DNA of 64,000 nt from a phage, in sequence record PZ445446.1; one strand, written 5' to 3'. Below are positions 7,967 to 60,060 of the stretch, piece by piece. Both the position numbers and the translations under genes were made by a program. The notes beneath the pieces are model-generated. The model was not told where the DNA came from and did not search any database. It worked only from the letters and a program-made list of their open reading frames with translations. Numbering within the stretch: position 1 is the first letter of the stretch; each line of letters begins with the position of its first letter.

Positions 7967-10900
7967 ATGCTTCCAATCCCTTTGCTAAAACTTGGTCGTC
8001 ATTTCCTCGATAAGAGGGGTGGAATTAAGGAACTTGCTGTTCTGTCATACCCAATAGACAACAGTGATGGTACAAGCAACACAGTATCCTATGTAAATAG
8101 CTTAGCTATACTTTTTGATGATGGTCAGCTTAATATTACTGGCTATAATAGGTTCGGAGAGTGTCGGACTGGAGATCTTGATACAATAAACTATCCTAAT
8201 GAGGCAGCTTGGAACGTAGACCATGTTTGGAGAGCTGACCGTGCATTTGTAATCCGCACATTCGATAATAAATTTTTCTATATTGGTTGCACAGCTGGTC
8301 TTATCGGATCGGAGGCAGCAGGTGGAAACGATGTTTGTGTCAGAGAGTGGACACCTTTGCCGGAACAGATCGTAACAGGGTTGCATTTGGACACCCATCC
8401 TGAGAGACTTGTTGAAGTAATGGGTGGCGTAAACAATACAGTGTGGGTAATTGCTGCACCAGAGGCTGATGGTATGCTTCACCTGTACGGCTCTGGCAAT
8501 AATACTTACGGCTCTCTTCATGTTGACAAAAATCAGCATGCAACCCCTGTAAAGATTGGTGAGACATCGGAAAATCCTGAAACAGGTCCTTGGAAAAACC
8601 CAAGCATCAACTGCGAGGTGCATGACAACTCTGTTATTTTCGGTGGTCCTAGAGGTTTCTGGATTGCTGGATACGACTTTCTGAGAAATAACAGTAGAAA
8701 CGACCTTGTTTGGCCTCCTGTGCAGATTACTCGTAACGATTTGAGGGGCATTCCTGCAGATGAGGAGTGGAAAGGGTTTATGTGCGGTCCTAACGGGGCA
8801 ATAATTGCCACACAGAGGATGCATAGACCCGATGACCAGCAGCTTGTTAACGTATTTTATGGTCAAAACATTTGGGGAGATGATACATGGCGGGAACTGA
8901 ATATCACCTACACCCATGAGGTAATAATGGCTCGTGGGTACGGCACAAGTGGCATTTTCTTCAATAATGGCACCAAGCAGTATCGTGGATTCTCTCGCAA
9001 CTTGTGTAATGATATTGGTGCACAATCTGCAAACAATAGTCCTAGGTCCGATTTTATCCACTATCAAGCTCTTGCTACAGCTAAATATGTTGAGCAACGC
9101 CTGCCAGTTAGCTGGACAGAGAGTGTTTATTTCCAAGGCATCCATAGAGAAGGTTTCTTAGGGACCTTTACTGTTGTTAATGGTAAACTTTGGTGGTCAG
9201 GCATCCCAAGGGGAAGTTTTGCAGGCTCTAACAACCTGTTTGGAGGCAGACTTAATAGCCAGGGGTTCACAGAGGTTCCTGAGAATTGGTATAAAAATGT
9301 CCCGGTAGACAGTTGGGGTGTTGAGGATATTTTCGACGTTAACGGTGTTAGCAGCGTTAGCAATATTTACATTGGTGACACGGTCAAGATGAAGTTGAAG
9401 CCTCAGCCAGAGGGGGCTACGTTCATTATTGACAAGATTGAACTGGTAAATGCTGCAGGTACGGTTGTTACAGATGCAAATTACCAATTCTCCACCAACT
9501 GGAACCACGGCGGGGCCAACGAAGTTGTTGTTACCCAGTATAACAGAAATGTTAACAGACGTGGCCTGTACTCTGTAAAAATAACCTATCATGACAAGCA
9601 TGGCACAGGCAGAACCCATACGACAAGGACTTTGAACTGGAACACCATAGTTCCTGCGTATCCGTCCAACGGCAAGTGGCATACTGTCGGTAGAAACAAA
9701 CAGTTCCATGTCAACGATACTGTATACTTCGGGCTTAACGCAGCTCAACCTGCTGTAGAAGGCGATACATCGTATATAGTACGACTCCATAGAATGGATG
9801 CCGGGTCTGTAACCTACGATGTGACTCAGGAGATCTACGATCAGAGACGTACCACGTATGACAATGTTGTGAAAACACAAGCCTTGTGGGAGTTCAACCC
9901 TAACGGCAGAGGCGGTAAAATGTTGCAGGTCAACGAGCAAAACGGGACATCGTTGACTGTCCATGAACATCCAGATCCTTGGCCTGATCCTGGAAAACCT
10001 AACTCTGGTGCTCGTACACTGAAAATTGTTAGCCATGATGCAGGATATTTCGGAATACGCTGGGAAGCCACAGTAAGATATGCCGACGGGACAACAAACA
10101 ACATAGGGATCACCCTTGATGGCACTAGTGAGGATAACTCCCTGAAAATTGCCTACACCCCTAGGGGCATCTCTATTGACAACATAGATGTTGTTCGCAA
10201 CGGTTACGGCGATGTGAATGTCAAAGTTACTCTTGGCGAACATCTTGGTGGGGAAAGGATCATCATGTATGCCTTTGATCATGATCCGCGCACCAATGGG
10301 ACTTATGCAAATCAGGCATGGAGTTATCTGATAAATGCACCTGAGCCGAATACTAAAGAGTTCTACTACGGTATGAAGCGAGATGTGTGCAAGAAAACAG
10401 GAACACATGACTGGATTGCTATCTGCGTTAAAGATGAGCGCACAGCTTGGGATGAGCCTGTTAACAGATGGTTCATAGGTATTCCTACCAGAAGTGATAA
10501 GTATGTCGCAGAATATATTGTATGCATGGGCGGTACCAACCTAAACATGTGTTGGAACGAAGATGTAAACAAATACTCTGATTATGACTATATGAGGGAT
10601 TACTCTTGTAATTTGTGGTTTAACCAAACTACAGGTTACCCTCCGCGTCAGGCAAGGGTAAATCCTGCAATCTTTACAGATACGCAGGTTTTCTTGACAA
10701 AACAGGCCAACGAGGTCCAGACCTTCAAGAACAAATACGACCCTAATAAGTGGTTCTATAACTGCTATGGGGCATTTTTCTGGGGACCTGGAGAATTACC
10801 TGGTGGTGGCTCTTGTTTTGAGGCTGCAACTTACGCCAGTGACAGATTTATGGGCCAGGTCAAGAAATACAAGATAATTCCAGGGCCTGAAACTTTAGGC

Positions 10901-29874: not shown

Positions 29875-30212
29875 GTTTGTGGAGAAATATAGTTAACTAC
29901 GTGTGTGGCAATCCAACTCCTGAAGAGAAGGATGTTGTGATTCACGATTTTACTAAAAGATCCCGTGAAAAAGATCTACTGTTAACAAAGGTGACTGATA
30001 AAGACCCTGCAGTAGGGGACTGGGCAGGTTTTGCGTTTACATCGGACAAATACACCTTTAACAAAGGTGACTACCTTGTTGTGGATTTTAACGAAGACAT
30101 TGAGGGTGCTGAACCTTACTATCAGACCCTTATTGTTGCAGGGTGTGTTGATCTCTCTGCAGGTATGCACAGTTTGATTCTTTTTGAGCTTGACTCTGAA
30201 GACCTCCAGTAG
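29871..30212 (+). CDS. hypothetical protein
   Basis: 113-aa ORF followed by GGGGAGG/CCTCCCC hairpin. Confidence 0.4.
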   Translation: MSLWRNIVNYVCGNPTPEEKDVVIHDFTKRSREKDLLLTKVTDKDPAVGDWAGFAFTSDKYTFNKGDYLVVDFNEDIEGAEPYYQTLIVAGCVDLSAGMHSLILFELDSEDLQ

Positions 30213-30273
30213 TAAGATGTAAGTATAAAGGGGAGGCACTCCTCCCCACAAAAACTAAGGAGAGCACCAAACG

Positions 30274-39993: not shown

Positions 39994-40056
39994 TGCTTGA
40001 CAACAGTCATAGGGCCTACTATAATGGCCCTATCAAAACGGAAGGGGACCACAGCA

Positions 40057-41273: not shown

Positions 41274-41356
41274 CAAATACCTATTGTAATTTACAGAAGG
41301 GGATGCTAAAATAGTGTCTCCTTCTATGTTGTTCAAATAAAATCGGAGATTCCATA

Positions 41357-46489: not shown

Positions 46490-46799
46490 TATTTTAAGTT
46501 ATCAGATTGCCAGAGATCAGGAGGATTTCTAAAATGGATTTCCTCCTTTTGATATTTTACCTACCAGGATATTTTAAAATCCTTAGAAAATCAGAAAATG
46601 GATCGAAAACTAAAATGGATTTTTCAGAGCAGGCACGACGAGATGAACCACTCATCCTATCGTCTGCACCATATTCCAGACCACCATTACAGATTTCCCG
46701 CACATGCTCACACCCTTCTACTAGAACTTCCCCCACTTACCCTTGACCTTTTATAGTAATAATCCAACCACTACCTTGAAGTTGTGGCGCAGCTTTCCA

Positions 46800-47650: not shown

Positions 47651-47679
47651 TTGACAGCTCGGACAGTTCTTGTTATTCT
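47651..47679 (+). promoter_or_regulatory. sigma70-type promoter TTGACA-N17-TATTCT
   Basis: Just after stop of 47510-47647, upstream of 47733. Confidence 0.5.
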
Positions 47680-47732
47680 TATCCTCACAAGGTGAACAAC
47701 ACCACACCAATTAACAGAGAGGATAAAAAATC

Positions 47733-48398: not shown

Positions 48399-48426
48399 TT
48401 GACACGCTGCAAAATTTAAGTAAACT
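48399..48426 (+). promoter_or_regulatory. sigma70-type promoter TTGACA-N16-TAAACT with leader hairpin
   Basis: Followed by GGCGGGAA/TTCCCGCC hairpin (about 48437-48455) before ATG 48476. Confidence 0.5.
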
Positions 48427-48475
48427 AGACACAAAAGGCGGGAATGTTTCCCGCCAGCACAAAGGAAAAAAGATC

Positions 48476-48871
48476 ATGAATAAGAACGTACGCCGCATCA
48501 TGAACGAACTGGCAAACGATGAAAAAATTATTGACATGCATTTAGTCAACATTTGCCGCCGTTGTGTAACATATAACAACCGCGCCGCAAAAGCGCGTGA
48601 GATGAACGCAAAAGGCACCTTAAAGCCCTTTCAGGTGGTTGTAAAATCTATAACCAGTGCAGCAGGCCAGGCGCATGACCACAACAACGGGAGCACTAAT
48701 ATTGATCCGTCTTACGTAATGAAACGGATCCGGACTTGCAAGAATAAAGAGCAGGTGTATAATGTCATAGACTGGTTGGATTCTATGGGCGATGTGGTTT
48801 ACAATAGGTTTTCTGCAGCTATCGAGATCCAGCTTGACAGGTTGGACGGTAAAGTACTGAAAACTTACTAA
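48476..48871 (+). CDS. hypothetical protein
   Basis: Internal ATG chosen because track start 48377 overlaps promoter and leader hairpin. Confidence 0.45.
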   Translation: MNKNVRRIMNELANDEKIIDMHLVNICRRCVTYNNRAAKAREMNAKGTLKPFQVVVKSITSAAGQAHDHNNGSTNIDPSYVMKRIRTCKNKEQVYNVIDWLDSMGDVVYNRFSAAIEIQLDRLDGKVLKTY

Positions 48872-48919
48872 GATTATTTTTAGATGGCCTTGACTTCAGG
48901 GCCATCAATAAAGTAAACT
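48872..48919 (+). repeat. 48-bp inverted-repeat element, copy 1 (GATGGCC-N10-GGCCATC with embedded TTGACT-N18-TAAACT)
   Basis: Starts at stop codon of 48476-48871; near-identical to copies at 49503 and 53243. Confidence 0.7.
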
Positions 48920-48951
48920 AATCCCAGTTAAGCGAAAAAGGAGGCTTGAAG

Positions 48952-49071
48952 ATGAGCACTACACGCCAACACACAAAGGTAACGATTATCGTTTGCATCA
49001 TTGGTTACATCCTGGCGCAAATGTTGATGGGTAGCGCCAATGATTTCGCAAAATTTTTCTTAGACTTTTAA
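48952..49071 (+). CDS. small hydrophobic peptide (39 aa)
   Basis: ATG after AAAAAGGAGG RBS, downstream of repeat element 1; hydrophobic core TIIVCIIGYILAQMLMG; absent from track. Confidence 0.35.
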   Translation: MSTTRQHTKVTIIVCIIGYILAQMLMGSANDFAKFFLDF

Positions 49072-49099
49072 TTGACAAGCTAACTTAAATCAGTATAAT
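49072..49099 (+). promoter_or_regulatory. sigma70-type promoter TTGACA-N16-TATAAT with leader hairpin
   Basis: Consensus hexamers; GGGAAAACTTCCC hairpin in leader before ATG 49152. Confidence 0.6.
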
Positions 49100-49151
49100 A
49101 CTAAGCACATAAACGGGAAAACTTCCCAGAACACCAAAAGGAGAAAACATT

Positions 49152-49502
49152 ATGAATACTTCCATCACTATGACCGCCGAAGAAAAAGCCCTGCAGATCG
49201 CCGCTCTGAAAAAACAGATTGCAGAACTTGAAGACAAGATCGACAATTTTGAAATCGACGAAGACAAGTACGACGATAAATATGATGAATGGTTAGACGA
49301 GATCTACGGCGAAATTATGATCGGAAACATTTCTTTTCTTCCGTCGCGTATCCTCAAGGAGCTAGATCCTATCGCTTACCGCTGCGGATTTAGCGACTAC
49401 ATCGACAGCCTGGATATTGAGGACGATGAAGAATACCAGGAATTACAGACAGAGTTAGAAGAAGCAAAAGAAGAGCTTGCAGAACTGGAAGAAAACGAGT
49501 AA
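49152..49502 (+). CDS. highly acidic protein (DNA-mimic candidate)
   Basis: 116 aa; Asp/Glu-rich, coiled-coil-like ends; TTGACA-N16-TATAAT promoter upstream. Confidence 0.5.
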   Translation: MNTSITMTAEEKALQIAALKKQIAELEDKIDNFEIDEDKYDDKYDEWLDEIYGEIMIGNISFLPSRILKELDPIAYRCGFSDYIDSLDIEDDEEYQELQTELEEAKEELAELEENE

Positions 49503-49550
49503 GATTATTTTTAGATGGCCTTGACTCCAGGGCCATCAATAAAGTAAACT
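49503..49550 (+). repeat. 48-bp inverted-repeat element, copy 2
   Basis: Immediately after stop of 49152-49502; identical core to copy 3. Confidence 0.7.
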
Positions 49551-49591
49551 TTATACTGTTAACACTGAACTAATGCATAGGAGTTAAAACC

Positions 49592-49837
49592 ATGGCAGCA
49601 CTAATCACCAAATATTATGCCCCTACCAACACCAAAAGCGCCCGTATCATGGTAAAAGGCTTCGGACGTAAAAAGGTGTACACCTGGGATTATGCCTTAG
49701 ACACGGAAGACAACTACACCAACGCGATGACCGATTTTATTAATGATCTGAACACGCGGATCTTGACAAATTATAAAATTACCGATATTGCCTATATAGG
49801 GGAAGGCGGGATCTGTTTTGTCGGTATCGTCAAATAA
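49592..49837 (+). CDS. hypothetical small protein
   Basis: 81 aa; downstream of repeat element 2. Confidence 0.5.
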   Translation: MAALITKYYAPTNTKSARIMVKGFGRKKVYTWDYALDTEDNYTNAMTDFINDLNTRILTNYKITDIAYIGEGGICFVGIVK

Positions 49838-49845
49838 GCTGTTTT

Positions 49846-49892
49846 TTCGGTGGTCCTGGTAGCAGGGCCATCTATAAAGATAGTTTATCAAT
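49846..49892 (+). repeat. degenerate fourth copy of inverted-repeat element
   Basis: ggtggtcctggtagcagggccatctataaagatagtttat keeps the 3' arm and AATAAAG-like tail but lacks TTGAC. Confidence 0.4.
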
Positions 49893-49912
49893 ACAATGAA
49901 AGGAGAAAGTAC

Positions 49913-50266
49913 ATGATCAGCGGGGCAAGTTTTATTATTGGCGCTATTGCTACGGCTTTAATTGTAAACAAGATCCAATCTAAAAACGAAAAAGATAGCA
50001 ACGCCCTTACAGAATACCCGTTTTGGGTATTCAACGACAATGAAGACTATATTATCAAGTACAAGAATGAGAAGGGCGACCAGGTAACACCGCGACCGAT
50101 CCCGGCTTACAAGATGCAAGAAACACTATACCGCCTAAAGGCTGGAGGCGCAAAAATCGTAGACTTTTGGGGATACGATCACACAGATCAGGAAGTTATA
50201 AAGCGCCGTATCCGGGCTATTCAGGCCAATATTGAAGTTAGCAAGGGGGGAATATATGAAGATTAA
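49913..50266 (+). CDS. membrane-anchored protein
   Basis: ATG after AAAGGAGAAAG; N-terminal TM (ISGASFIIGAIATALIV); track start 49850 trimmed. Confidence 0.45.
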   Translation: MISGASFIIGAIATALIVNKIQSKNEKDSNALTEYPFWVFNDNEDYIIKYKNEKGDQVTPRPIPAYKMQETLYRLKAGGAKIVDFWGYDHTDQEVIKRRIRAIQANIEVSKGGIYED

Positions 50267-50453
50267 TTTTGAGAAGATTGTAAAGCGATCTCATGCTTCC
50301 GAAGAGCTGCCGGAACGCCGCCAGCGCAACAATAAACTGAATAAGCCAAAAAGATTTGGGAAGATCTGGCGGAATCATTATGATCGCAAATTACCGGGCC
50401 TGCTTTTGGAACGTGAACGACAGGCGGAACGATACCGCCACAAAGGCAAATAA
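50256..50453 (+). CDS. hypothetical small basic protein
   Basis: ATG after AAGGGGGG; Arg/Lys-rich; followed by terminator. Confidence 0.35.
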   Translation: MKINFEKIVKRSHASEELPERRQRNNKLNKPKRFGKIWRNHYDRKLPGLLLERERQAERYRHKGK

Positions 50454-50462
50454 CAACCAACG

Positions 50463-50490
50463 CCCCGCCATTGTGCGGGGCTTTTTATTT
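50463..50490 (+). terminator. intrinsic terminator
   Basis: GCCCCGC-cattgt-GCGGGGC + TTTTTATTT. Confidence 0.65.
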
Positions 50491-50694
50491 CTATCCTACA
50501 AATAGCGCCCCTGGTTGGCCCTGTAAGCGCCAAAAAGGCCCCACCTATGCAATCGCCCCCCTTTAACCTGAAAACATCGCTTAGGGCCGTTTTATGGCGT
50601 TAAAAATATCATTGACAGTGATTTTATTTAAAGCTTGACATCTTAAACAGGTTAGCTATACTAACCACATCAAAGAGAGAAAGGAGTAAACGCC

Positions 50695-50943
50695 ATGCGT
50701 AAATTAAAAAATTTTGATAAAGTTGATGTTGTCCTGAATAATTTTTACTACTGCAACAACAAGGCCATTTGGTGGCGTGATAGTTCCACCGATAAAGTCA
50801 AGGCGCGCTTTCTCCAGGGGCACTGGCAAGGCCGCCCAGTGATTAAAATCATGGGGCAATTGGTAGCGTTTAAAAATTGCCGCCGTGTTGATGACGTTGA
50901 AGAGATCTTGAATATTTTACGCCACAATAATTTAAAAAAATAG
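50695..50943 (+). CDS. hypothetical small protein
   Basis: 82 aa; AAGGAG RBS. Confidence 0.5.
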   Translation: MRKLKNFDKVDVVLNNFYYCNNKAIWWRDSSTDKVKARFLQGHWQGRPVIKIMGQLVAFKNCRRVDDVEEILNILRHNNLKK

Positions 50944-50945
50944 TG

Positions 50946-50973
50946 TTGACAAGTAAATCTCAATAAGTATACT
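50946..50973 (+). promoter_or_regulatory. sigma70-type promoter TTGACA-N16-TATACT with leader hairpin
   Basis: Followed by GGCGGGAAGTTTTCCCGCC hairpin (50984-51002) before ATG 51031. Confidence 0.55.
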
Positions 50974-51030
50974 TAAGCACACAGGCGGGAAGTTTTCCCG
51001 CCACTAACAAAGAAAATAGGAGAAAATATC

Positions 51031-51654
51031 ATGACCACCGTTAACATTACCACAGGTTGCAATTTATCTTTCGACGTGCTGACCGATGAACAAAAAGAAA
51101 AAGCTATTGAAATGGTCCGCGAAAGAGAAGAACACAGCGGAGAGGATTTTTTCGCAGAAAGTGTAATTGAATATTATAAAGAACAAGTTTTTCCAGAGTA
51201 CGGCCTTGAAGATACCGATGTACATTGGTCCGGCTTTTGGTGTCAAGGCGATGGCGCGTCAATTAGTGCTGAAAATGTAGACTTAGAGAAATTCTTGCGT
51301 AAAGTCAAGGCCCTGACCAAGTTCCGATCAATTCGTCACTTGTTCGGAACAATGCACGATGGCGAACTATCAGCCAGTGTTGAACGCGACAAGTACAGCC
51401 ATTACAGCCATGAAAACACTGTAAGCGGATATATTGATACTACCTGGCTAGATCTGACCGCAAAACAAGAAAATAAAGTAGAAGATCTGGAAGAGCTGAT
51501 CACCGAGACGGTACGGGAGCTATCCCGCAAGGTTTATGTAGACCTGGAGGAGGCCTATCTTGAACAGTTTACTACCGAAAACCTGATCGGCCTTATTGAA
51601 GCCAATGATTGGCGGTTTGATGTGGATGAATATGGAGAAATGAGTTTTTCATAA
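51031..51654 (+). CDS. hypothetical protein
   Basis: 207 aa; promoter and leader hairpin upstream. Confidence 0.5.
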   Translation: MTTVNITTGCNLSFDVLTDEQKEKAIEMVREREEHSGEDFFAESVIEYYKEQVFPEYGLEDTDVHWSGFWCQGDGASISAENVDLEKFLRKVKALTKFRSIRHLFGTMHDGELSASVERDKYSHYSHENTVSGYIDTTWLDLTAKQENKVEDLEELITETVRELSRKVYVDLEEAYLEQFTTENLIGLIEANDWRFDVDEYGEMSFS

Positions 51655-51745
51655 ATAAAGTGTTGCAATAATCTAAAAACCTGCTATATTAAAACTTAAG
51701 GGGGAGAGATGACTTGCCCCCACACAAAACAAAGAGGAAAACATC

Positions 51746-52126
51746 ATGAAAAACACTACTAAAGCTATTGACACCGTTATGTTTAACCTGGTTACATTCC
51801 GTGAAGATATGAAAGATCTTCCACGTGAAACAGTGTGCGACCATATCGAAAACTATCGCAAACTAATCAAAGAGTTGCCTTTAAAACGTGACCAGTACGC
51901 GGCTAACGCTATGCTTAACGCCATGATCAAGAAAATGATTCAGTGCGATTTGACTTTAGCTTATGATTATGCAGGTGGTCGTTTTGCAGTATACAATCAG
52001 CCCGTGCCTGGTATGAGCACCACAGAAGAATTGCACGCGTTAAATCTAAAACAAGACGTATGGGATAACATGCCCCGCGTGGTGGTGTGGGCAGAAAGCG
52101 GAAAGATTTACGGCGATAATTTTTAA
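51746..52126 (+). CDS. hypothetical protein
   Basis: 126 aa; AGAGGAAAA RBS; terminator downstream. Confidence 0.5.
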   Translation: MKNTTKAIDTVMFNLVTFREDMKDLPRETVCDHIENYRKLIKELPLKRDQYAANAMLNAMIKKMIQCDLTLAYDYAGGRFAVYNQPVPGMSTTEELHALNLKQDVWDNMPRVVVWAESGKIYGDNF

Positions 52127-52135
52127 TCAGGTAAC

Positions 52136-52163
52136 AGGCGGCATATTTGCCGCCTTATTGTTA
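52136..52163 (+). terminator. intrinsic terminator
   Basis: AGGCGGCA-tatt-TGCCGCCT + TATTGTT. Confidence 0.55.
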
Positions 52164-52190
52164 AACAGAACTGCAAAAGAGGTACATAGA

Positions 52191-52562
52191 ATGGAATTTA
52201 TTATTTTGGCTGTAGTAGTTGCCTTGTTCAACGCCTGGATCGCTGGCAAGATGGGTAGATCCGCTTTTCTATGGTTTGTTATATCTATTTTCCTGGGAGT
52301 GGTTGCAACTATTGTATTGGTTATCCTTGCAATTGTTGACAAGGGGAATAATAGAAAGGGTAAAGTATTTTCAGACCTGTACGACGCTCAAACGTTTGTC
52401 AACGCCTATTATAGTGATCTTCCAGTCTCCCTACGCTGCAGCCTGGCACAACAGGTTTTTGATGAGGCTAAAACCAGAGACCAAGCCCATGAGATATGTT
52501 TAACTGAGGCGGATCGCCTATTTGAGAGGAATAGAAAATATGTGGACCAGCCGTTTAAATAA
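52191..52562 (+). CDS. membrane protein
   Basis: ATG after AAGAGG; two hydrophobic helices; track start 52158 trimmed. Confidence 0.45.
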   Translation: MEFIILAVVVALFNAWIAGKMGRSAFLWFVISIFLGVVATIVLVILAIVDKGNNRKGKVFSDLYDAQTFVNAYYSDLPVSLRCSLAQQVFDEAKTRDQAHEICLTEADRLFERNRKYVDQPFK

Positions 52563-52761
52563 TGCCACGTTAATTAACCCCTTTAGTGAAGATTTGAAGC
52601 CAGCCGCCTGGCGGGATGGATTCAATAACGAAAGCTTTATTTTCAGGCCTGATCTTAAGGAATTTTATAACAATGGATCGAACAACGACAGAGATAATTT
52701 TTCTTGTAATGTGCGTGGTGATAATACTCCTGGGGGCCATTGCAAACCACGTCACTGCTAA
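52540..52761 (+). CDS. hypothetical small protein (uncertain)
   Basis: ATG after GAGAGGA, overlaps upstream gene 3' end; alternative frame 52616-52798 also open. Confidence 0.3.
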   Translation: MWTSRLNNATLINPFSEDLKPAAWRDGFNNESFIFRPDLKEFYNNGSNNDRDNFSCNVRGDNTPGGHCKPRHC

Positions 52762-52781
52762 CAGGAGGAAAGGGGGAGACG

Positions 52782-52901
52782 ATGACACCCAAGGATAAGC
52801 CCCGCACCGATAAGGCGCGCCGTGTTATGGTATGGCTTGAGATCATCGCCCTTGAAATATTGTTAGGCGTAGGGATGTATTTTATCGCTGTAAGTAACTG
52901 A
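52782..52901 (+). CDS. small membrane peptide (39 aa)
   Basis: ATG after CAGGAGGAAAGGGGGAG RBS; hydrophobic WLEIIALEILLGVGMYFIAV; absent from track. Confidence 0.4.
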   Translation: MTPKDKPRTDKARRVMVWLEIIALEILLGVGMYFIAVSN

Positions 52902-53040
52902 TAACGGCCCCGATCCCTGGGGCCTAACTTTTCAAATTTTTTCTCCCTGAGTGTTGCAATCCGATCCAGAATATGGATAATAACAATCAACGGGGAGACA
53001 CTCCCCACCGCATAGACAAAGTTCCAAAAGGAGAAACAAA

Positions 53041-53241
53041 ATGAGCAACAATATCCGCGTTATTAACTTCAAAAAAGAAGAAAAAATTGCCGTGCTGATT
53101 GACGGTCAAGAAATCTTTAAAGGTGATTATGAAGATCATCAAACGGCGATTAGTATCACTCGCGTGATTGGTTACCATAATTTTTACCCTCAAGGCGCTG
53201 AGGCAGCAGTAAAACGAATTAAAGAGATTGTAGGCCTGTAA
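53041..53241 (+). CDS. hypothetical small protein
   Basis: 66 aa; AAGGAGAAA RBS; followed by repeat element 3. Confidence 0.45.
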   Translation: MSNNIRVINFKKEEKIAVLIDGQEIFKGDYEDHQTAISITRVIGYHNFYPQGAEAAVKRIKEIVGL

Positions 53242-53242
53242 A

Positions 53243-53290
53243 ATTTATTTTTAGATGGCCTTGACTCCAGGGCCATCAATAAAGTAAATT
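53243..53290 (+). repeat. 48-bp inverted-repeat element, copy 3
   Basis: Immediately after stop of 53041-53241. Confidence 0.7.
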
Positions 53291-53332
53291 TAAACCCTGT
53301 TAAAATAATCAGTGCAAAAAGGAGTAATGATC

Positions 53333-53632
53333 ATGTTTATCCAGGCTAATAATCTTTATTTCTTTGATGGTCAGATCGTAGACGGCGTGGAGGTGGAAAT
53401 CACCGGGTGCCCTGGCGGTCAGGTTATGACTTTTCGGAATAATGCCTTTGATGATTCTCATATCGTTATGAGAATGGAAGTTAGTAAGCTGGATGACAAG
53501 AAAACACTTATCGACTATTCCGTCAAAGATCATCCAGACTACCACATGATCTATGGTGATTTGTGCATTGTTGACCGTGACAAGGTGGGCGGCATTGTGA
53601 TCGCTATTGTGAACGATGTTTTCTCAAACTAA
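53333..53632 (+). CDS. hypothetical protein
   Basis: ATG 8 nt after AAAGGAG; downstream of repeat element 3. Confidence 0.45.
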   Translation: MFIQANNLYFFDGQIVDGVEVEITGCPGGQVMTFRNNAFDDSHIVMRMEVSKLDDKKTLIDYSVKDHPDYHMIYGDLCIVDRDKVGGIVIAIVNDVFSN

Positions 53633-53649
53633 TTTCAGCAGGTGATTTT

Positions 53650-54000
53650 ATGAAAGTAAAACTATATTACCTTAATGAGCTTAACCCCCTTGCCCAGGTC
53701 CGCGCCCTGGCTAATACCTTGATTTGTGAGAAATCTGTATATTGTGTTGAGCTTAACGCCATGCGTGAACGTCTCAAAGGTGGTTACTTTGACATCCATG
53801 CTGCAATCAACGGCCTGAATATGGAATTTATCCGCTTACGTAACAGCCGCCAGAATCTGGCAAGAATGGAACAAGATCCGGCCCACCTTCGTAAGCTGGT
53901 TATTGAAAATCATCTGATGTTTAATGCCGATGGTGATTATTACCATTTTCACCGCAAACGCTGGTACCGTGGCGGCAATACAGGCAAGAATGCAAAATAA
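53650..54000 (+). CDS. hypothetical protein
   Basis: 116-aa ORF followed by hairpins and terminator. Confidence 0.5.
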   Translation: MKVKLYYLNELNPLAQVRALANTLICEKSVYCVELNAMRERLKGGYFDIHAAINGLNMEFIRLRNSRQNLARMEQDPAHLRKLVIENHLMFNADGDYYHFHRKRWYRGGNTGKNAK

Positions 54001-54037
54001 GGCCCCAGGCAGGGCCTGCAGCGATATAATCACATAA

Positions 54038-54070
54038 AGGCTATGCGGTTGCATGGCCTTTATTATTTTA
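54038..54070 (+). terminator. intrinsic terminator
   Basis: AAGGCTATGC-ggtt-GCATGGCCTT + TATTATTTT. Confidence 0.55.
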
Positions 54071-54201
54071 GCGTTACAGCGGCCCCAAGGCGCTTAAAAA
54101 ATTTTTAAAGAAGTACTTGCATCAAGTCCTACAATATGGATAATAGGACGTGTCAGGGGGGCGGCCCCCAATCATTAACCGGATAGATAGGAGTTAAAAT
54201 C

Positions 54202-54486
54202 ATGGCTATTGTCACCGTTGGCGATGTAGTGGAAATGGAAGCAAAATACTTAAAAGCGGGTATGCATATCCTACGGAATGATCAAGAATTGTTATTAACG
54301 ATGGTAGACTATAATCCCGGCCAGGATTATCCAAGCATCGACTACTTTTTTGAGTATGTTGATGAAGAATTGAAAGAGGATGAGGCTTATCAGGGTGAAT
54401 TCTGCAATTTCTTTTGCCCTGATGAGGTTGTAAAAGTTATCTATCAACCTGGAGTACCTTTCCCGCTGCACGCTATCAATAAATAA
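54202..54486 (+). CDS. hypothetical acidic protein
   Basis: 94 aa; TAGGAG RBS. Confidence 0.5.
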   Translation: MAIVTVGDVVEMEAKYLKAGMHILRNDQELLLTMVDYNPGQDYPSIDYFFEYVDEELKEDEAYQGEFCNFFCPDEVVKVIYQPGVPFPLHAINK

Positions 54487-54540
54487 ACCTGGTGGGGCCG
54501 AAAAGGCCCCAATTATGAAAATAAAGAGAGGTAAATCATC

Positions 54541-54774
54541 ATGATGGAACAAATTAAACGCGCTGAGTCTATTAATGGCAATGTGATCTATTTTGTCAGC
54601 AAAAACGAAAAAGGCGTACCATATGCGGCGGTAATAGTACAACCTGACGGCGATTATTGGTTTACTGTGTACGGCGCTTATTCTTTTGGGCGTCCGGTGC
54701 ATGATAGAATTTTGAAAGTAGCGAACCCTACCGGGAAAAATATTACAGCAGAAAAATTTTTTGAAAATAGTTGA
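54541..54774 (+). CDS. hypothetical small protein
   Basis: 77 aa; AGAGAGG RBS. Confidence 0.5.
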   Translation: MMEQIKRAESINGNVIYFVSKNEKGVPYAAVIVQPDGDYWFTVYGAYSFGRPVHDRILKVANPTGKNITAEKFFENS

Positions 54775-54798
54775 CATGACCATATAAGACTGTAGAAT
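54771..54798 (+). promoter_or_regulatory. sigma70-type promoter TTGACA-N16-TAGAAT
   Basis: Overlaps stop of 54541-54774; leader hairpin GGGGCaacaaGCCCC follows. Confidence 0.5.
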
Positions 54799-54850
54799 AT
54801 AAATCAAAGGGGGCAACAAGCCCCACCAACCACAAAGAGGATAAAAAATC

Positions 54851-55030
54851 ATGGCTATTATTGCAAAGACTGAGATCGTAGGCTTAGATTCTATTCTCCT
54901 CGCATATGAGGAAGCTATAGAAATGTATGTGGTTTCCTATGGTGAATATATCCGTGAATATAAATCTATTGATCTGGCTTTTGAATGTTATATTCGCCAG
55001 GTTAATAAAGCGTACGATGATTATCGTTAA
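54851..55030 (+). CDS. hypothetical small protein (59 aa)
   Basis: ATG after AAAGAGGA, downstream of TTGACA-N16-TAGAAT promoter and GGGGC/GCCCC leader hairpin; below track cutoff. Confidence 0.45.
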   Translation: MAIIAKTEIVGLDSILLAYEEAIEMYVVSYGEYIREYKSIDLAFECYIRQVNKAYDDYR

Positions 55031-55120
55031 AATAGCTTGACAACAAACAACCATCTAACAAAGCATAATACATAAGGCGGTGGAATGGTCCGCCACCTGG
55101 AACAAGAAGAGGAAAACAAG

Positions 55121-55225
55121 ATGAAACAGAAATTAATTGATGCGGTGATCCTGGTTATTGCCCTGGGTATTGGCCTGATTGCAACCATGTCTAATATGAT
55201 CTTGTCTTCCAACGGTATCGGGTGA
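55121..55225 (+). CDS. small membrane peptide (34 aa)
   Basis: ATG after AAGAAGAGGAAAA; single hydrophobic helix; absent from track. Confidence 0.4.
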   Translation: MKQKLIDAVILVIALGIGLIATMSNMILSSNGIG

Positions 55226-55234
55226 GGTTGGCAA

Positions 55235-55450
55235 ATGATCACTAACAAAACAGGCAAAACAGAATTTTTACGCAACTTACAGATCGGCAAGCCTGAGATC
55301 TGGTATTGCACTAAAACACCACGTGACGAAATGAAAGACTTCACCGCCACGCTGCAACGGGTAAAGATATCCATCACGCAGAAAAAGGCCTTATTAGTGG
55401 TGGAAGGTGAGATCCCCCAAACCGTTGTTATAGTTGGGCGTACAGCATAG
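55235..55450 (+). CDS. hypothetical small protein
   Basis: 71 aa; GAGGT RBS. Confidence 0.45.
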   Translation: MITNKTGKTEFLRNLQIGKPEIWYCTKTPRDEMKDFTATLQRVKISITQKKALLVVEGEIPQTVVIVGRTA

Positions 55451-55541
55451 TTTAATTTATACCGATACCCGAAAATTAACCAACAAAGCATAAACAGGCG
55501 GTTACCGCCGCCTTAAACGTAGCAGAAAGAGGATAGACACA

Positions 55542-56295: not shown

Positions 56296-56324
56296 TTGAC
56301 ATCTGCCAGGTGGTGGGGTAGCAT
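56296..56324 (+). promoter_or_regulatory. sigma70-type promoter TTGACA-N17-TAGCAT
   Basis: Upstream of ATG 56380; leader GGGGGCaaaaGCGCCC hairpin. Confidence 0.5.
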
Positions 56325-56379
56325 TTATCTCGAAGGGGGCAAAAGCGCCCACACAACAACCGGAAGAGAGGAAAACGCC

Positions 56380-56652
56380 ATGTTAAGCTGGATTAACCAA
56401 GAAGTTGAATCACGTTTTAATGCTATTTGGGATCTCATCGAAAAAGAGGACGGAACATCAAGCCCTTATCTCAATAATCTTGAATTCCATTTCGTGGAAG
56501 CGATGAACGCAGAACATGATCACGAAGGTGGTGCGGATGAATTCGCTAAAGGATATGGCTTCAACAATGCCAACGAAATGATCGAGGCGGTTGTACTCCA
56601 GGCTGAGGAAGATTATCAATTAAAAACGCTTGAATTCTGCCGCCGTAAGTAA
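56380..56652 (+). CDS. hypothetical acidic protein
   Basis: Internal ATG after GGAAGAGAGGAAAA; track start 56296 coincides with the promoter -35. Confidence 0.5.
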   Translation: MLSWINQEVESRFNAIWDLIEKEDGTSSPYLNNLEFHFVEAMNAEHDHEGGADEFAKGYGFNNANEMIEAVVLQAEEDYQLKTLEFCRRK

Positions 56653-56712
56653 TAAGATAATGACACGGGCCAAAAGGCCCACTAATCAGAACCGCACAAA
56701 GAGGTAAACATC

Positions 56713-56976
56713 ATGAAACGTCTTGATCAGCTCAAATTAGTTCAATATATGGCTTATCGTGTTCTTGAAGTCCAGAAAGGTAGCAAAAAAGAGGTTTGCG
56801 AGAAAGCTTATAAGATCTTCACTCGCAAAAAAGATGACTGGATGCTGCGCCAGACTAAAAAGGCTGACATCTTGGGGTACCTGGAAGAAGAGATCCGCCT
56901 TGAAGAGCAAGAAGAGATCCGCCGTAGTGAGGCAGATTATCAGGCAGCTTGGGAAAACTGGATGAGCAACAAATAA
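56713..56976 (+). CDS. hypothetical small protein
   Basis: 87 aa; AAGAGG RBS. Confidence 0.5.
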   Translation: MKRLDQLKLVQYMAYRVLEVQKGSKKEVCEKAYKIFTRKKDDWMLRQTKKADILGYLEEEIRLEEQEEIRRSEADYQAAWENWMSNK

Positions 56977-57042
56977 TACAACAAGTTACATGGTCAGGGG
57001 CAATAAAGCCCCTTGATCACATAAAAATTATGCTATCCCTGG

Positions 57043-57071
57043 TTGACAGGGATCGGCAGTTTTGCTATATT
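57043..57071 (+). promoter_or_regulatory. sigma70-type promoter TTGACA-N17-TATATT
   Basis: 78 nt upstream of ATG 57121. Confidence 0.55.
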
Positions 57072-57120
57072 CTTTTTTGAAGGGAAGTTGTAAGAAAATT
57101 AACTAAGAGGTAAAAACACC

Positions 57121-57540
57121 ATGAACATTAAATCTAATAATCCGGCATATAGCTTTGATAACGCTTTTTGTCACGGTCCGGCGGCGAAAGGATTCGAAAT
57201 CGATGGTAAACTAATTATTGTCAATGTTGACGGGGAAGAGGTTGCAGTATATCCGGTGGCAGACGTAAAAAGCCGTTTACAATGCCGCATGGATGTTACC
57301 GCCTATCAGCTTGATCCGGTCCGCATAGTTGCCCTGGTCCTGGAAGAAGAAATTAAAGCCATGCACCATAGCAACAGATTTATTGGTGACGCGCAGGATA
57401 ATATGAAAGTATGCCGCCATAAAGTTAATGAAGTGCTTAAAGAGTACGGCTATAAAGATCTTATGATCAAACGTGAGGAAAAATTCCGCTACCGTAACGA
57501 CCTGGCAAATCGGATTTTTGAAATATACGAATCATTATAA
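57121..57540 (+). CDS. hypothetical protein
   Basis: 139 aa; AAGAGG RBS after TTGACA-N17-TATATT promoter; strong terminator follows. Confidence 0.5.
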   Translation: MNIKSNNPAYSFDNAFCHGPAAKGFEIDGKLIIVNVDGEEVAVYPVADVKSRLQCRMDVTAYQLDPVRIVALVLEEEIKAMHHSNRFIGDAQDNMKVCRHKVNEVLKEYGYKDLMIKREEKFRYRNDLANRIFEIYESL

Positions 57541-57557
57541 TTTTTTAACTGAATTAT

Positions 57558-57586
57558 CAAGGGGCTTAGGCCCCTTTCTTTTTGTC
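57558..57586 (+). terminator. intrinsic terminator ending rightward small-gene module
   Basis: AAGGGGC-ttag-GCCCCTT + TCTTTTTG after stop 57540. Confidence 0.7.
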
Positions 57587-58200
57587 TGCTCTTCTCCTAC
57601 CATAAACGGCCCTACCTGGCAAGTGGAATAATTGACTAGCCATCAATCCCACATACTGTACAAATATACATGGAAAATAACTATTGCATAATTTTTCATT
57701 GTGTGGTAGCAAGTCCATTTTTACCCGTTTTCTCTCCCAAAAGTGCACGTAATGCCGCTATTGCACAAATTTTAACCTGATGCACATCTCCAATATCTTG
57801 TCAACAACTAAAAATCTTTATAAGTCATACACTTACACAGCATCGAAAGCGTGTTCTACGCGAAAAATCGAGTATAACTATAGCCGCCAGATCTCAGAAT
57901 TCACGTACGCACGCCATTCTATAGCCTGCAAAGTATTTATTCCAACCACAGAATAACGGAATAGTCAATACCTGCATAAAATAATTATTCGTGTAAACTG
58001 CATAACATAAATCAGCTCAGGTGTCAACATTTTTCGTAAACAGTCCGAAATTATCACGATGAGCTATCATAAACAGAGAAATATTTAGTCGTCTAATGTT
58101 TACTGTACATTACTATACTGACTGGAATCATTAGATGACTAAGAGAAAGATAAGAAATAATTAATAATGTAATTATTTTACCTGTAACAATAAGGCAACT

Positions 58201-58494
58201 ATGCAAACGAATGGCATGGCGCGACGGAGTCGCGACATAATATAAAAGCAGTAACCATCACCCCCGTGATAGTTTGTCTGCAAACTATTAATCAGATCAT
58301 AGTTGCCTTGTATTTAGTTAATCATGACATAACAAGCAAGGCAACTATAGATCTTCTAATAGTTGCCCTGCTTTTATATTATGTCATAGGAACGCCCGAA
58401 GGGGTGACCTAGTCACCTGGTATAGCCAGCGAAAGATTATTAACTTGTCGATTGTTATCTTGTTAATTGTTTTCATGCAAACGAATGGCATGGC
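58201..58494. repeat. 20-bp direct repeat pair (atgcaaacgaatggcatggc)
   Basis: Copies at 58201-58220 and 58475-58494. Confidence 0.6.
58234..58387. repeat. 18-bp perfect inverted repeat pair (gacataatataaaagcag / ctgcttttatattatgtc)
   Basis: Arms at 58234-58251 and 58370-58387. Confidence 0.6.
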
Positions 58495-60060
58495 TTATCA
58501 TCTATGCGTGAACAGTGAGGCATGCAATAGTAACAATTGTTATTGTATCCAGTGTGTTGAGTATGCCCAGTGTGTCACTATTATGTCATATTATGTCACA
58601 GTATGTCAGACAAGTTTTCCTCCTCTTTGTCAAGTGCTGCATGAAAAATTTACAAGCTTGTATGGTAGCATTTTTGCGGCCCTGTTTACATTCAGTGTTG
58701 TATGTATAATCCTTGTTGTGTGGGCGTTTAGACGTCTGGACGGTCAGAAGTTTGCAGGTCAATATCTAATCTATTGGCTGCTAACTATATCCCCCACAAA
58801 TAATAAGAAATATAATTGTTATGTGCGTAAACAGTAACCCATGTTATCAATCCCTGTATGTATCGCCAGTGGTGCGCATAATGGGTATTATGTTAAATTG
58901 CCCGTAATGATAACAGTTCTCACAATGATAGGTATTCTCATTCATCCACACAAAATAGGTTGCAAATGTTGTGCCACTGTGTGAACGGCCTGGCCTATTA
59001 ATTTCTCTCACTGCCTCGATATTTGAGAATTGTTATAAGAATGAGAAGTATTCCCATTCCGTCCGCCTGGCAGCACTCCAGTAGCTACCGGCTCCTGACA
59101 GGGCAGCACTCCTGTAGGTCAGGTCAAAATCGTGGTAGAATTGGGCCTGTTCAGATATTTCTGACTGACTCTTCAGATCTGTGTGGGAAAAGCCAACCTC
59201 TCCGGAGGGGCAGGGGAGGTCAATTAAAAAATTTACGTGGTGTATGAAGCGCTCTTCAGGTAAGGCATGTATTATGGGATGAAACCCTCTTCAGGCAATG
59301 ATATTTGTGGGTGTGATATTTGCTGGAAAGCCAGATATGACGGGACTCCCGGCGGGGATGGGGTAGTACAGACAGGGAAAATATGGGGATGTAGTTGGGT
59401 AAATTGATCAGACAGGTAGAGTATGGAATATGTTACAAGTATGTTAAATAGGGAGGATGAATATCTGCAGGATTTGTGTGTAAAATCAAAGACTTAAGTG
59501 GTGTTGTGGTATTTTCTATAAATAATTCAAGTTTAATAGGTAATATTTGTCTCTATCCACTTTGTGTGGTAAACAGATTCAGATGAAATTGGTTTACAAG
59601 TGTATACATAATATACAAATTAAAGATACAAGAAACCCCCCTCCCCCTTCGGCTACCATTCACCTTTTCCTCTGACTGGTACTTAAACACTTATTCAGAC
59701 TCTTCAGGTTATCACCCATATATCATATGGCAGTGACTGGTGTCCTCCGGCCCCTCTTTCGTCACCCGTCCGCTTCGCCATGCTAATGCCATAGCCAATG
59801 GTTCGGTTGTTCACTCTGTTCACTCAGGTGTATCTCCATACCCCTTCAAACCGAAGAGAACAGAAAACCCGAATTACTCGGTAAAAGAAAAGAGAAGAAC
59901 TTAATTTTATCAGGATAGGCAAGAATGTCAAGGCATGACTGCTCACTAAACAAGCAAACAGTCATGTGTGGAAGGTAAGTGATTGTGGTGGTGGGAAATT
60001 TAGTTGAAAGATGTGTTATAGGTGCGCTTCCAGCACTTTGGCCGGGCAGCTAATTGTGTG

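Follow-up and report, generated by a model that had tools for sequence, protein, structure and literature searches.

Promoter/stem-loop cassettes of the PeSL kind in the small-gene region of an rV5-like phage

Several T4-like phages, namely RB49/phi1, PST and nt-1, carry promoter/stem-loop cassettes known as PeSLs (Arbiol et al. 2010, PMC2839356; Comeau et al. 2014, PMC4122927). PeSLs sit between ORFans in hyperplastic regions, where they mediate insertions and deletions by recombination, and they fall into five subclasses according to the position of the stem-loop, one of which is downstream of the -10 hexamer (PMC2839356). Here we describe a set of sigma70-type promoters, each followed by a short G-first hairpin in the 5′ leader, in a 64,000-nucleotide stretch of phage DNA (sequence record PZ445446.1; the whole stretch is hereafter the window). 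The window belongs to a Vequintavirus: the 8 kb around the hairpins share 98% identity with Escherichia phage JeffSchatz, and identity is 93–97% with rV5, APECc02 and some 190 further Vequintavirus genomes. The arrangement is real, it recurs and its structure is constrained, and the cassettes of the window fall into the class that was defined for T4-like phages in 2010. For rV5-like phages, searches of the literature, which left paywalled papers uncovered, turned up no account of PeSLs, of leader hairpins or of mapped transcription starts.

In the reading developed below, the probably early small-gene region of this rV5-like phage would be built from composite cassettes of the PeSL kind, in which a putatively strong sigma70 promoter is coupled to a hairpin of 4–10 bp. 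Comparative evidence supports selection on the hairpin as a sense-strand RNA structure. In the transcript of its own promoter it would form 2–5 nucleotides (nt) inward of the 5′ end, leaving the ribosome-binding site (RBS) free, and its most likely role would be to slow the 5′-end-dependent decay of early mRNAs by limiting the access of RppH and RNase E. As short repeats among ORFans, the cassettes would also act as recombination points. Taken as a whole, this explanation is the best we can offer, and we give it about an even chance of being right.

A recurrent arrangement of promoter, hairpin and leader

To survey cassettes, every intergenic region of at least 40 nt was listed in the orientation of its gene. 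Twelve leader cassettes have a common order: an upstream stop codon, the -35 and -10 hexamers, about 10 A-rich nt, a G-rich arm, loop and C-rich arm, and then an A/C-rich leader with a AAAGAGGA-type Shine–Dalgarno sequence and an ATG. The spacer between the -10 and the first base pair measures 9–12 nt in nine of the 12, and the end of the stem lies 20–34 nt from the start codon. This regularity of layout is found with stems of at least seven unrelated sequence types. The G-rich arm comes first in 12/12 leader hairpins (P = 5 × 10−4), and a segment of 34 nt beginning 3 nt past the -10 folds at or below a cut-off of -9 kcal/mol in 10 of 24 curated promoters versus 5.7% of all window positions (binomial P = 3.5 × 10−7); paralogy among the cassettes inflates both P values, and the cassette counts are not independent. 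Eleven of the 12 cassettes fall within 47.6–56.7 kb, amid hypothetical genes of 35–207 aa. This interval is part of a plus-strand series of small hypothetical genes that extends over 38.3–57.0 kb, 3′ of the DNA polymerase gene. A scan of a further 42 kb of the JeffSchatz genome showed no G-first leader cassette of this type.

For comparison, the homologous region was taken from 16 relatives and the orthologous leaders were extracted. The 207-aa protein encoded at 51031–51654, used as an IMG/VR query, returned only two close relatives, so the set was drawn from phages in GenBank, whose divergence is only 2–15%. Across these relatives the promoter hexamers are variable in 10% of alignment columns, versus 31–38% in spacers and flanks, and the sequence upstream of the cassette promoters is AT-rich. 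Furthermore, Table S4 of the rV5 paper (PMC3606486) predicts eight of these promoters, P195, P195A, P194, P192, P186, P185, P174 and P168. Because the hexamers are conserved and eight promoters were predicted independently in rV5, we judge the promoters to be real, and by these signs they look functional.

An earlier note on this DNA had placed five hairpins behind sigma70-like promoters, and all five are present there, on the plus strand like every promoter and leader hairpin that follows. The first three do have canonical -35 and -10 hexamers before them. Hairpin GGCGGGAA/tgt/TTCCCGCC (48437–48455, -14.6 kcal/mol) follows TTGACA-16-TAAACT at 48399–48426, which is P194 of rV5; the weak hairpin GGGAA/aac/TTCCC (49115–49127, -5.5 kcal/mol) follows TTGACA-16-TATAAT at 49072–49099 (P192) after a spacer of 15 nt; and GGCGGGAA/gtt/TTCCCGCC (50984–51002, -14.6 kcal/mol) follows TTGACA-16-TATACT at 50946–50973 (P185). 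The arm said to be shared by three hairpins is thus complete in two of them, and the third has just GGGAA.

The fourth and fifth hairpins lack such promoters. Upstream of the fourth, the hexamers TTGACA and CATAAT (55038–55069) stand a non-canonical 21 nt apart in the window, rV5, JeffSchatz and V18; in A142 the separation is 17 nt owing to a 4-nt deletion, and activity of this promoter may be restricted to some of the relatives. The arms GGCGGTGG...CCGCCACC first proposed for this hairpin are not reverse complements, and the actual helix is AGG(C)GGTGGA/atgg/TCCGCC(A)CCT at 55075–55098 (-14.0 kcal/mol), with one G.U pair and a 1x1 mismatch. The fifth hairpin, at 55496–55513, can be drawn as GGCGGttaCCGCC (55497–55509) or alternatively as AGGCGGT/tacc/GCCGCCT; it is a paralogue of the 55075 cassette and has a decayed copy of the promoter.

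The pattern is wider than these five. Inside the interval that the earlier note covered, four further hairpins have the same layout: GGGGGAGAG/atga/CTTGCCCCC at 51700–51721, with one mismatch and one G.U, behind TTGCAA-16-TATATT with a TG extension (51663–51690); GGGGAG/aca/CTCCCC at 52992–53006 behind TTGCAA-16-GATAAT (52954–52981); GGGGG/cgg/CCCCC at 54157–54169 behind TTGCAT-16-GATAAT (54117–54144); and GGGGC/aacaa/GCCCC at 54810–54824 behind TTGACA-16-TAGAAT (54771–54798), the P174 of rV5. Outside it lie the weak hairpin GGTG/aacaa/CACC at 47691–47703, after TTGACA-17-TATTCT (47651–47679, P195A), and the imperfect GGGGGC/aaaa/GCGCCC at 56335–56350, after TTGACA-17-TAGCAT (56296–56324, P168). 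Two more follow promoters read from the sequence: GGGCC/aaaa/GGCCC at 56667–56680, after the probable promoter TTGAAT-17-TAAGAT (56630–56658), and GGGGAGG/cact/CCTCCCC at 30230–30247 (-14.1 kcal/mol), which begins 11 nt past the -10 of TTGACT-17-TAAGAT (30190–30218), upstream of the gene for an N6-adenine methyltransferase. The strongest hairpin of the region, TGGGGCC/gaaaa/GGCCCCA at 54493–54511 (-15.6 kcal/mol), starts 6 nt past a stop codon and has neither a recognisable promoter nor a T run; it is kept in 16/16 relatives with variable flanks.

Conservation of the pairing among relatives

The hairpins are retained in nearly all orthologues even though their sequence changes. Variable columns make up 25% of stems, 54% of loops and 33–38% of flanks. 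At 51700 the orthologues fall into nine distinct versions, each of which folds at -12 kcal/mol or below, and at 54157 almost all of ten versions, GGAGGT/GCCTCC among them, fold well. The turnover of these two stems includes an inserted C:G pair and a path from G-C through G-U to A-U. The V18 orthologue of 54157–54169 has its 5′ arm replaced by a run of 17 G, which may be either a hypermutable homopolymer or an artefact of sequencing.

Loops change in a distinctive manner, being swapped for their exact reverse complement between close relatives in four cassettes. The loop of the 48437 hairpin (48445–48447) reads TGT or ACA, that of the 50984 hairpin (50992–50994) GTT, AAC or CAA, and that of the 51700 hairpin (51709–51712) flips between GACGT and ACGTC, while at 55496–55513 the whole palindrome is inverted, AGGCGGTTACCGCCGCCT/AGGCGGCGGTAACCGCCT, in A142 and HMD-6. 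Small inversions of this sort are the expected outcome of template switching or of hairpin formation in DNA.

The strand on which selection acts was addressed by folding 66 distinct hairpin variants alone, both as sense and as antisense RNA. The sense strand has 26 G.U pairs versus nine in the antisense strand, a count confined to the hairpins alone because G/T-rich antisense flanks confound it. Likewise, the sense structure is more stable by >0.75 kcal/mol in 33 of the 66 variants and the antisense structure in six. In one relative the 47691 hairpin has a U.G wobble that is able to pair in the sense strand only. When full leaders were folded, the pairing probability of the hairpin was 0.73–1.0 and the RBS was mostly unpaired. 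A scan of 46–58 kb against Rfam gave only a chance match below threshold. Overall, the variation among the orthologues is consistent with selection on a sense-strand RNA structure without loop-specific recognition.

Candidate roles of the leader hairpins

The leader hairpins do not look like intrinsic terminators. Their tails are A/C-rich and T-poor: in the 8 nt past the stem, the 12 leader hairpins have 0, 1, 0, 0, 1, 0, 1, 3, 0, 0, 0 and 2 T residues (mean 0.7), versus 5–7 at six true terminators of the window. Since the tails have no T run, and hence the RNA no U tract after the stem, intrinsic termination was rejected as a candidate role. The rV5 paper includes none of these hairpins among its terminators and does not comment on them (PMC3606486). 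In phage EdH4 (MK327930), the orthologues of the 48437 and 54810 hairpins (1638–1656 and 7989–8003) are annotated as 'putative transcriptional terminator', yet they too lack a T run. The stem sequence alone is not diagnostic, because GGCGGGAA-N3-TTCCCGCC is commonly a terminator stem elsewhere: a scan of IMG/VR gave 116 matches, and in 81 of these a T run follows the palindrome, mostly at ordinary terminators of unrelated phages.

Stabilisation of mRNA by the leader hairpins is plausible and is our best single guess at a function. The earlier note had read the hairpins as 5′-terminal structures. They do appear to be sense-strand RNA structures, lying within ~25 nt of the predicted 5′ ends; the word terminal fits less well, as the predicted start, the 7th–9th nt past the -10, leaves a predicted overhang of 2–5 unpaired nt. 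We infer that a position of about +4 is the nearest at which a GC-rich element can stand outside the melting region, so that the spacing may be a trade-off.

Several observations weigh against a stabilising role. The predicted overhang of 2–5 nt is borderline when set beside the 0–1 nt (at most 2) asked of stabilising hairpins. RppH and RNase E require at least two unpaired 5′ nt and prefer at least three (PMC8833179); given this tolerance, protection would be partial at best unless transcription starts nearer to the hairpin. Some orthologues with intact promoters have weakened hairpins (for example -3.8 to -6.9 kcal/mol), which suggests that selection on the hairpins is moderate. Covariation, the check that the earlier note had proposed, gives a divided answer: pairing is kept across relatives, while formal support is thin. 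RNAalifold applied to two families found just one or two clean pairs changed on both sides per family, and MAFFT misplaces indels; covariation is modest because the relatives are so close (2–15% divergence). To these points are added the dependence among cassette counts already mentioned, the conservation of hairpins 54493, 55075 and 55496 without a canonical promoter, and the behaviour of one PeSL stem-loop that, without a U tract, lowered downstream lacZ like a strong terminator (PMC2839356).

A more ambitious version of the stabilisation idea would make the hairpins a dedicated 5′-end shield on early mRNAs in both rV5-like and phi92-like phages, a structural self-mark against the 5′-end-dependent decay that removes unshielded host messages. 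What is evaded would be decay by the host's RppH and RNase E, or else a shut-off of host mRNA that the phage stimulates. We consider this version improbable.

The last two points of those set against stabilisation lead to a different reading, in which the hairpins act on read-through transcripts. There they would be attenuators or insulators between units, as the PeSL authors proposed, or barriers to 3′ exonucleases that stabilise the upstream cistron once the A-rich leader has been cleaved. The promoterless hairpins at 54493, 55075 and 55496 keep this reading alive, and the lacZ effect of the PeSL stem-loop speaks for it. Most RB49 PeSL stem-loops lie within the promoter and so cannot be in their own transcript, and the window too has hairpins around the -35 (48883, 49514 and 53254) and around the -10 (40009 and 50651) besides the promoterless ones at 54493 and 55496. 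The terminator labels in the EdH4 record point the same way. Against this stand the missing U tract (0–3 T versus 5–7 at true terminators) and the fact that ARNold did not list these hairpins in rV5. Moreover, a terminator placed after a promoter would also halt the transcript of that promoter, and a role for the upstream gene only leaves the narrow spacing of 9–12 nt in three phage lineages unexplained. For the promoterless hairpins we also considered an obstacle to RNase E scanning along read-through transcripts; this is unlikely, as a simple internal stem-loop is readily bypassed by the scanning enzyme (PMC9943677). On balance, action on read-through RNA seems unlikely, though it deserves to be taken seriously.

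If the repeats instead worked as DNA, they could be operators through which a phage or host regulator shuts early promoters, or cruciform or hairpin signals for recombination. Their position, about +4 to +25, is typical of a repressor operator; GGCGGGAA-N3-TTCCCGCC occurs twice in the window and, with an extra A:T pair, five times in a Justusliebigvirus; the loop flips show that hairpin formation or template switching does take place in DNA; and recombination junctions lie in or beside the repeats. However, there is no common half-site, as the stems vary widely across cassettes and orthologues (GGGGAG, GGGGC, GGGCC, GGAGGT and others), and the strict G-first polarity would be meaningless for a symmetric operator. 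Mismatches and G.T pairs confined to one strand are also more easily reconciled with RNA than with a DNA duplex or cruciform, and in other viral contigs the palindrome is mostly the ordinary terminator stem described above (T run in 81/116). A DNA-level role therefore strikes us as rather improbable.

The hairpins might also have no function, as remnants spread with duplicated promoter cassettes or as former terminators without a T run that persist because the relatives are young. Duplication is evident: the 49115 and 50984 cassettes are paralogous and 72% identical over promoter and leader in rV5, and those at 55075 and 55496 have promoter-proximal sequence in common. The weakened stems of some orthologues and the low divergence among relatives would be in keeping with this reading. 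What such drift does not predict is that pairing is kept while loops and flanks change freely, including the inserted C:G pair and the G-C to G-U to A-U path, or that Vequintavirus, Justusliebigvirus and RB49 have non-homologous stems at one and the same position. We see only a slim chance that the hairpins are functionless.

Finally, three readings are together very improbable: recognition by an RNA-binding regulator of the phage and nut-like antitermination, which are the alternatives raised in the earlier note, and termination of antisense transcription on the minus strand. The hairpins do stand in leaders of early operons, and some have T-rich tails on the minus strand, where a terminator scan found 48455–48437, 53010–52988 and 54824–54810. 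However, conservation is lowest in the loops, which also invert, the stems differ among cassettes, no common linear motif lies beside the hairpins, Rfam gave no match, the T-rich tails occur in only about 4/12, and within the cluster no minus-strand promoters face the hairpins.

Recombination junctions and comparison with known systems

At the cassettes, genes are gained, lost and swapped between relatives, as is shown by the breakpoints between the window and its relatives. These often lie inside cassettes (48919/49502, 54776, 55045/55524, 55080 and 56681–56716). HMD-6 diverges from 55080, within a hairpin, and JEP1 at 54776, within a -35 hexamer; in one contig the pair of paralogous cassettes is fused, 55045 being joined to 55524. 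The 50984 cassette of V18 is chimeric, with a 5′ half that comes from the 49115 cassette and a junction in the hairpin. The leader at 56681–56716, just 3′ of the 56667 hairpin, is present twice in JeffSchatz and rV5, on either side of an extra gene, and a gene of 219 nt that follows 56716 in JeffSchatz, rV5 and APECc02 is missing from the window. Not all junctions lie in cassettes: that at 53646/53990 is outside any, and the gene at 53650–54000 is missing from rV5, V18, HMD-6 and A142.

Other elements of the window combine promoters and hairpins differently and correspond to the other PeSL subclasses. A repeat of 48–60 nt, TTATTTTTAGATGGCCTTGACTCCAGGGCCATCAATAAAGTAAACT, is present in copies at least 90% identical at 48872–48919, 49503–49550 and 53243–53290, with a variant at 49838–49885. 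It consists of a T run, a 7-bp hairpin that holds a TTGACT -35 in its 10-nt loop, and then a TAAACT -10. An IMG/VR contig lacks the two genes between the copies at 48872 and 49503, a loss by recombination between copies. Further hairpins enclose or overlap the -10 of promoter-like sites at 40009–40033, 41295–41325, 46519–46547 and 50651–50667, which is the arrangement of the commonest PeSL subclass in RB49; the hairpin at 46519–46547 has a T run after it. Beyond the plus-strand genes, about 3.1 kb without annotated genes (56977–60060) separate them from a convergent minus-strand cluster, and this stretch matches the 'non-coding' box of the rV5 paper. About 20 GenBank records titled 'Campylobacter phage', including MG065655, MG065659 and MG065662, are 92–94% identical to this coliphage region; the record MG065662 is flagged UNVERIFIED, and either these host labels are wrong or the samples were contaminated, probably.

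Whatever their function, the leader hairpins should not be called terminators in annotation, as they are in at least one GenBank record. If they do stand at 5′ ends, the cassettes would form a compact natural set of modules of promoter, 5′ hairpin and leader. Were the stabilising role true, it could explain the stability of many tiny early mRNAs in a large lytic phage and offer reusable expression parts. The cassettes also mark sites of gene exchange among rV5-like phages, and related cassette-plus-gene modules, reordered, occur in a phi92-like phage. In Justusliebigvirus KKE7M (Stephanstirmvirinae), five cassettes have GGCGGGAAA/tgg/TTTCCCGCC or related stems with a spacer of 10–11 nt, and three cassette-plus-gene modules are in common with the window in a different order.

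Among known elements, rho-independent terminators resemble the cassette hairpins in their GC-rich stem of 5–9 bp and loop of 3–5 nt. In contrast to terminators, the cassette hairpins have no T run and are placed after the promoter of the next gene rather than before it.

The ompA 5′ untranslated region and the phage T7 gene 10 leader, GGGAGACCACAACGGUUUCCC, are reported to contain 5′-terminal stabilising stem-loops (Emory, Bouvet and Belasco 1992; Dunn and Studier 1983). As in those leaders, the short GC-rich, G-first hairpin stands near the 5′ end, here a predicted one, and an unstructured leader with a strong RBS comes after it. What is conserved is the structure and not the sequence, and the hairpin folds autonomously and leaves the RBS free. 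The stem-loops of ompA and T7 gene 10 differ in lying 0–2 nt from a mapped 5′ end and in having measured effects on half-life, whereas the predicted overhang here is 2–5 nt.

The closest counterparts remain the PeSLs. In 21 intergenic regions of RB49 the stem-loops are G-first and without a U tract, and they lie mostly between the -35 and -10 or enclose the -10. The distribution in the window is different, with 12 stem-loops in the leader versus four around the -35 and four around the -10, while those of RB49 are mostly inside the promoter. The lineage also differs, being Vequintavirinae (and also Stephanstirmvirinae) rather than T4-like, and terminator and mini-circle activities are reported for PeSLs, whereas the window cassettes have no U tract, which argues against intrinsic termination. 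A blastn-short comparison with 54 kb of RB49 returned only matches to the promoter consensus (E ≥ 0.014; best about 0.01); with no homology beyond that consensus, the two sets are analogues, not homologues. Nonetheless, the leader of RB49 rIIB has exactly the layout of the window, with TATAAT, 10 nt and then GGGCGGC/gata/GTCGCCC. Both sets combine a consensus sigma70 promoter, AT-rich upstream, with an adjacent stable stem-loop in which a G run precedes a C run; both occupy a variable early region among small ORFans; and in both, the junctions of insertions, deletions and replacements between close relatives fall in the cassette. The PeSL type of promoter/stem-loop architecture thus extends beyond the T4-like phages.

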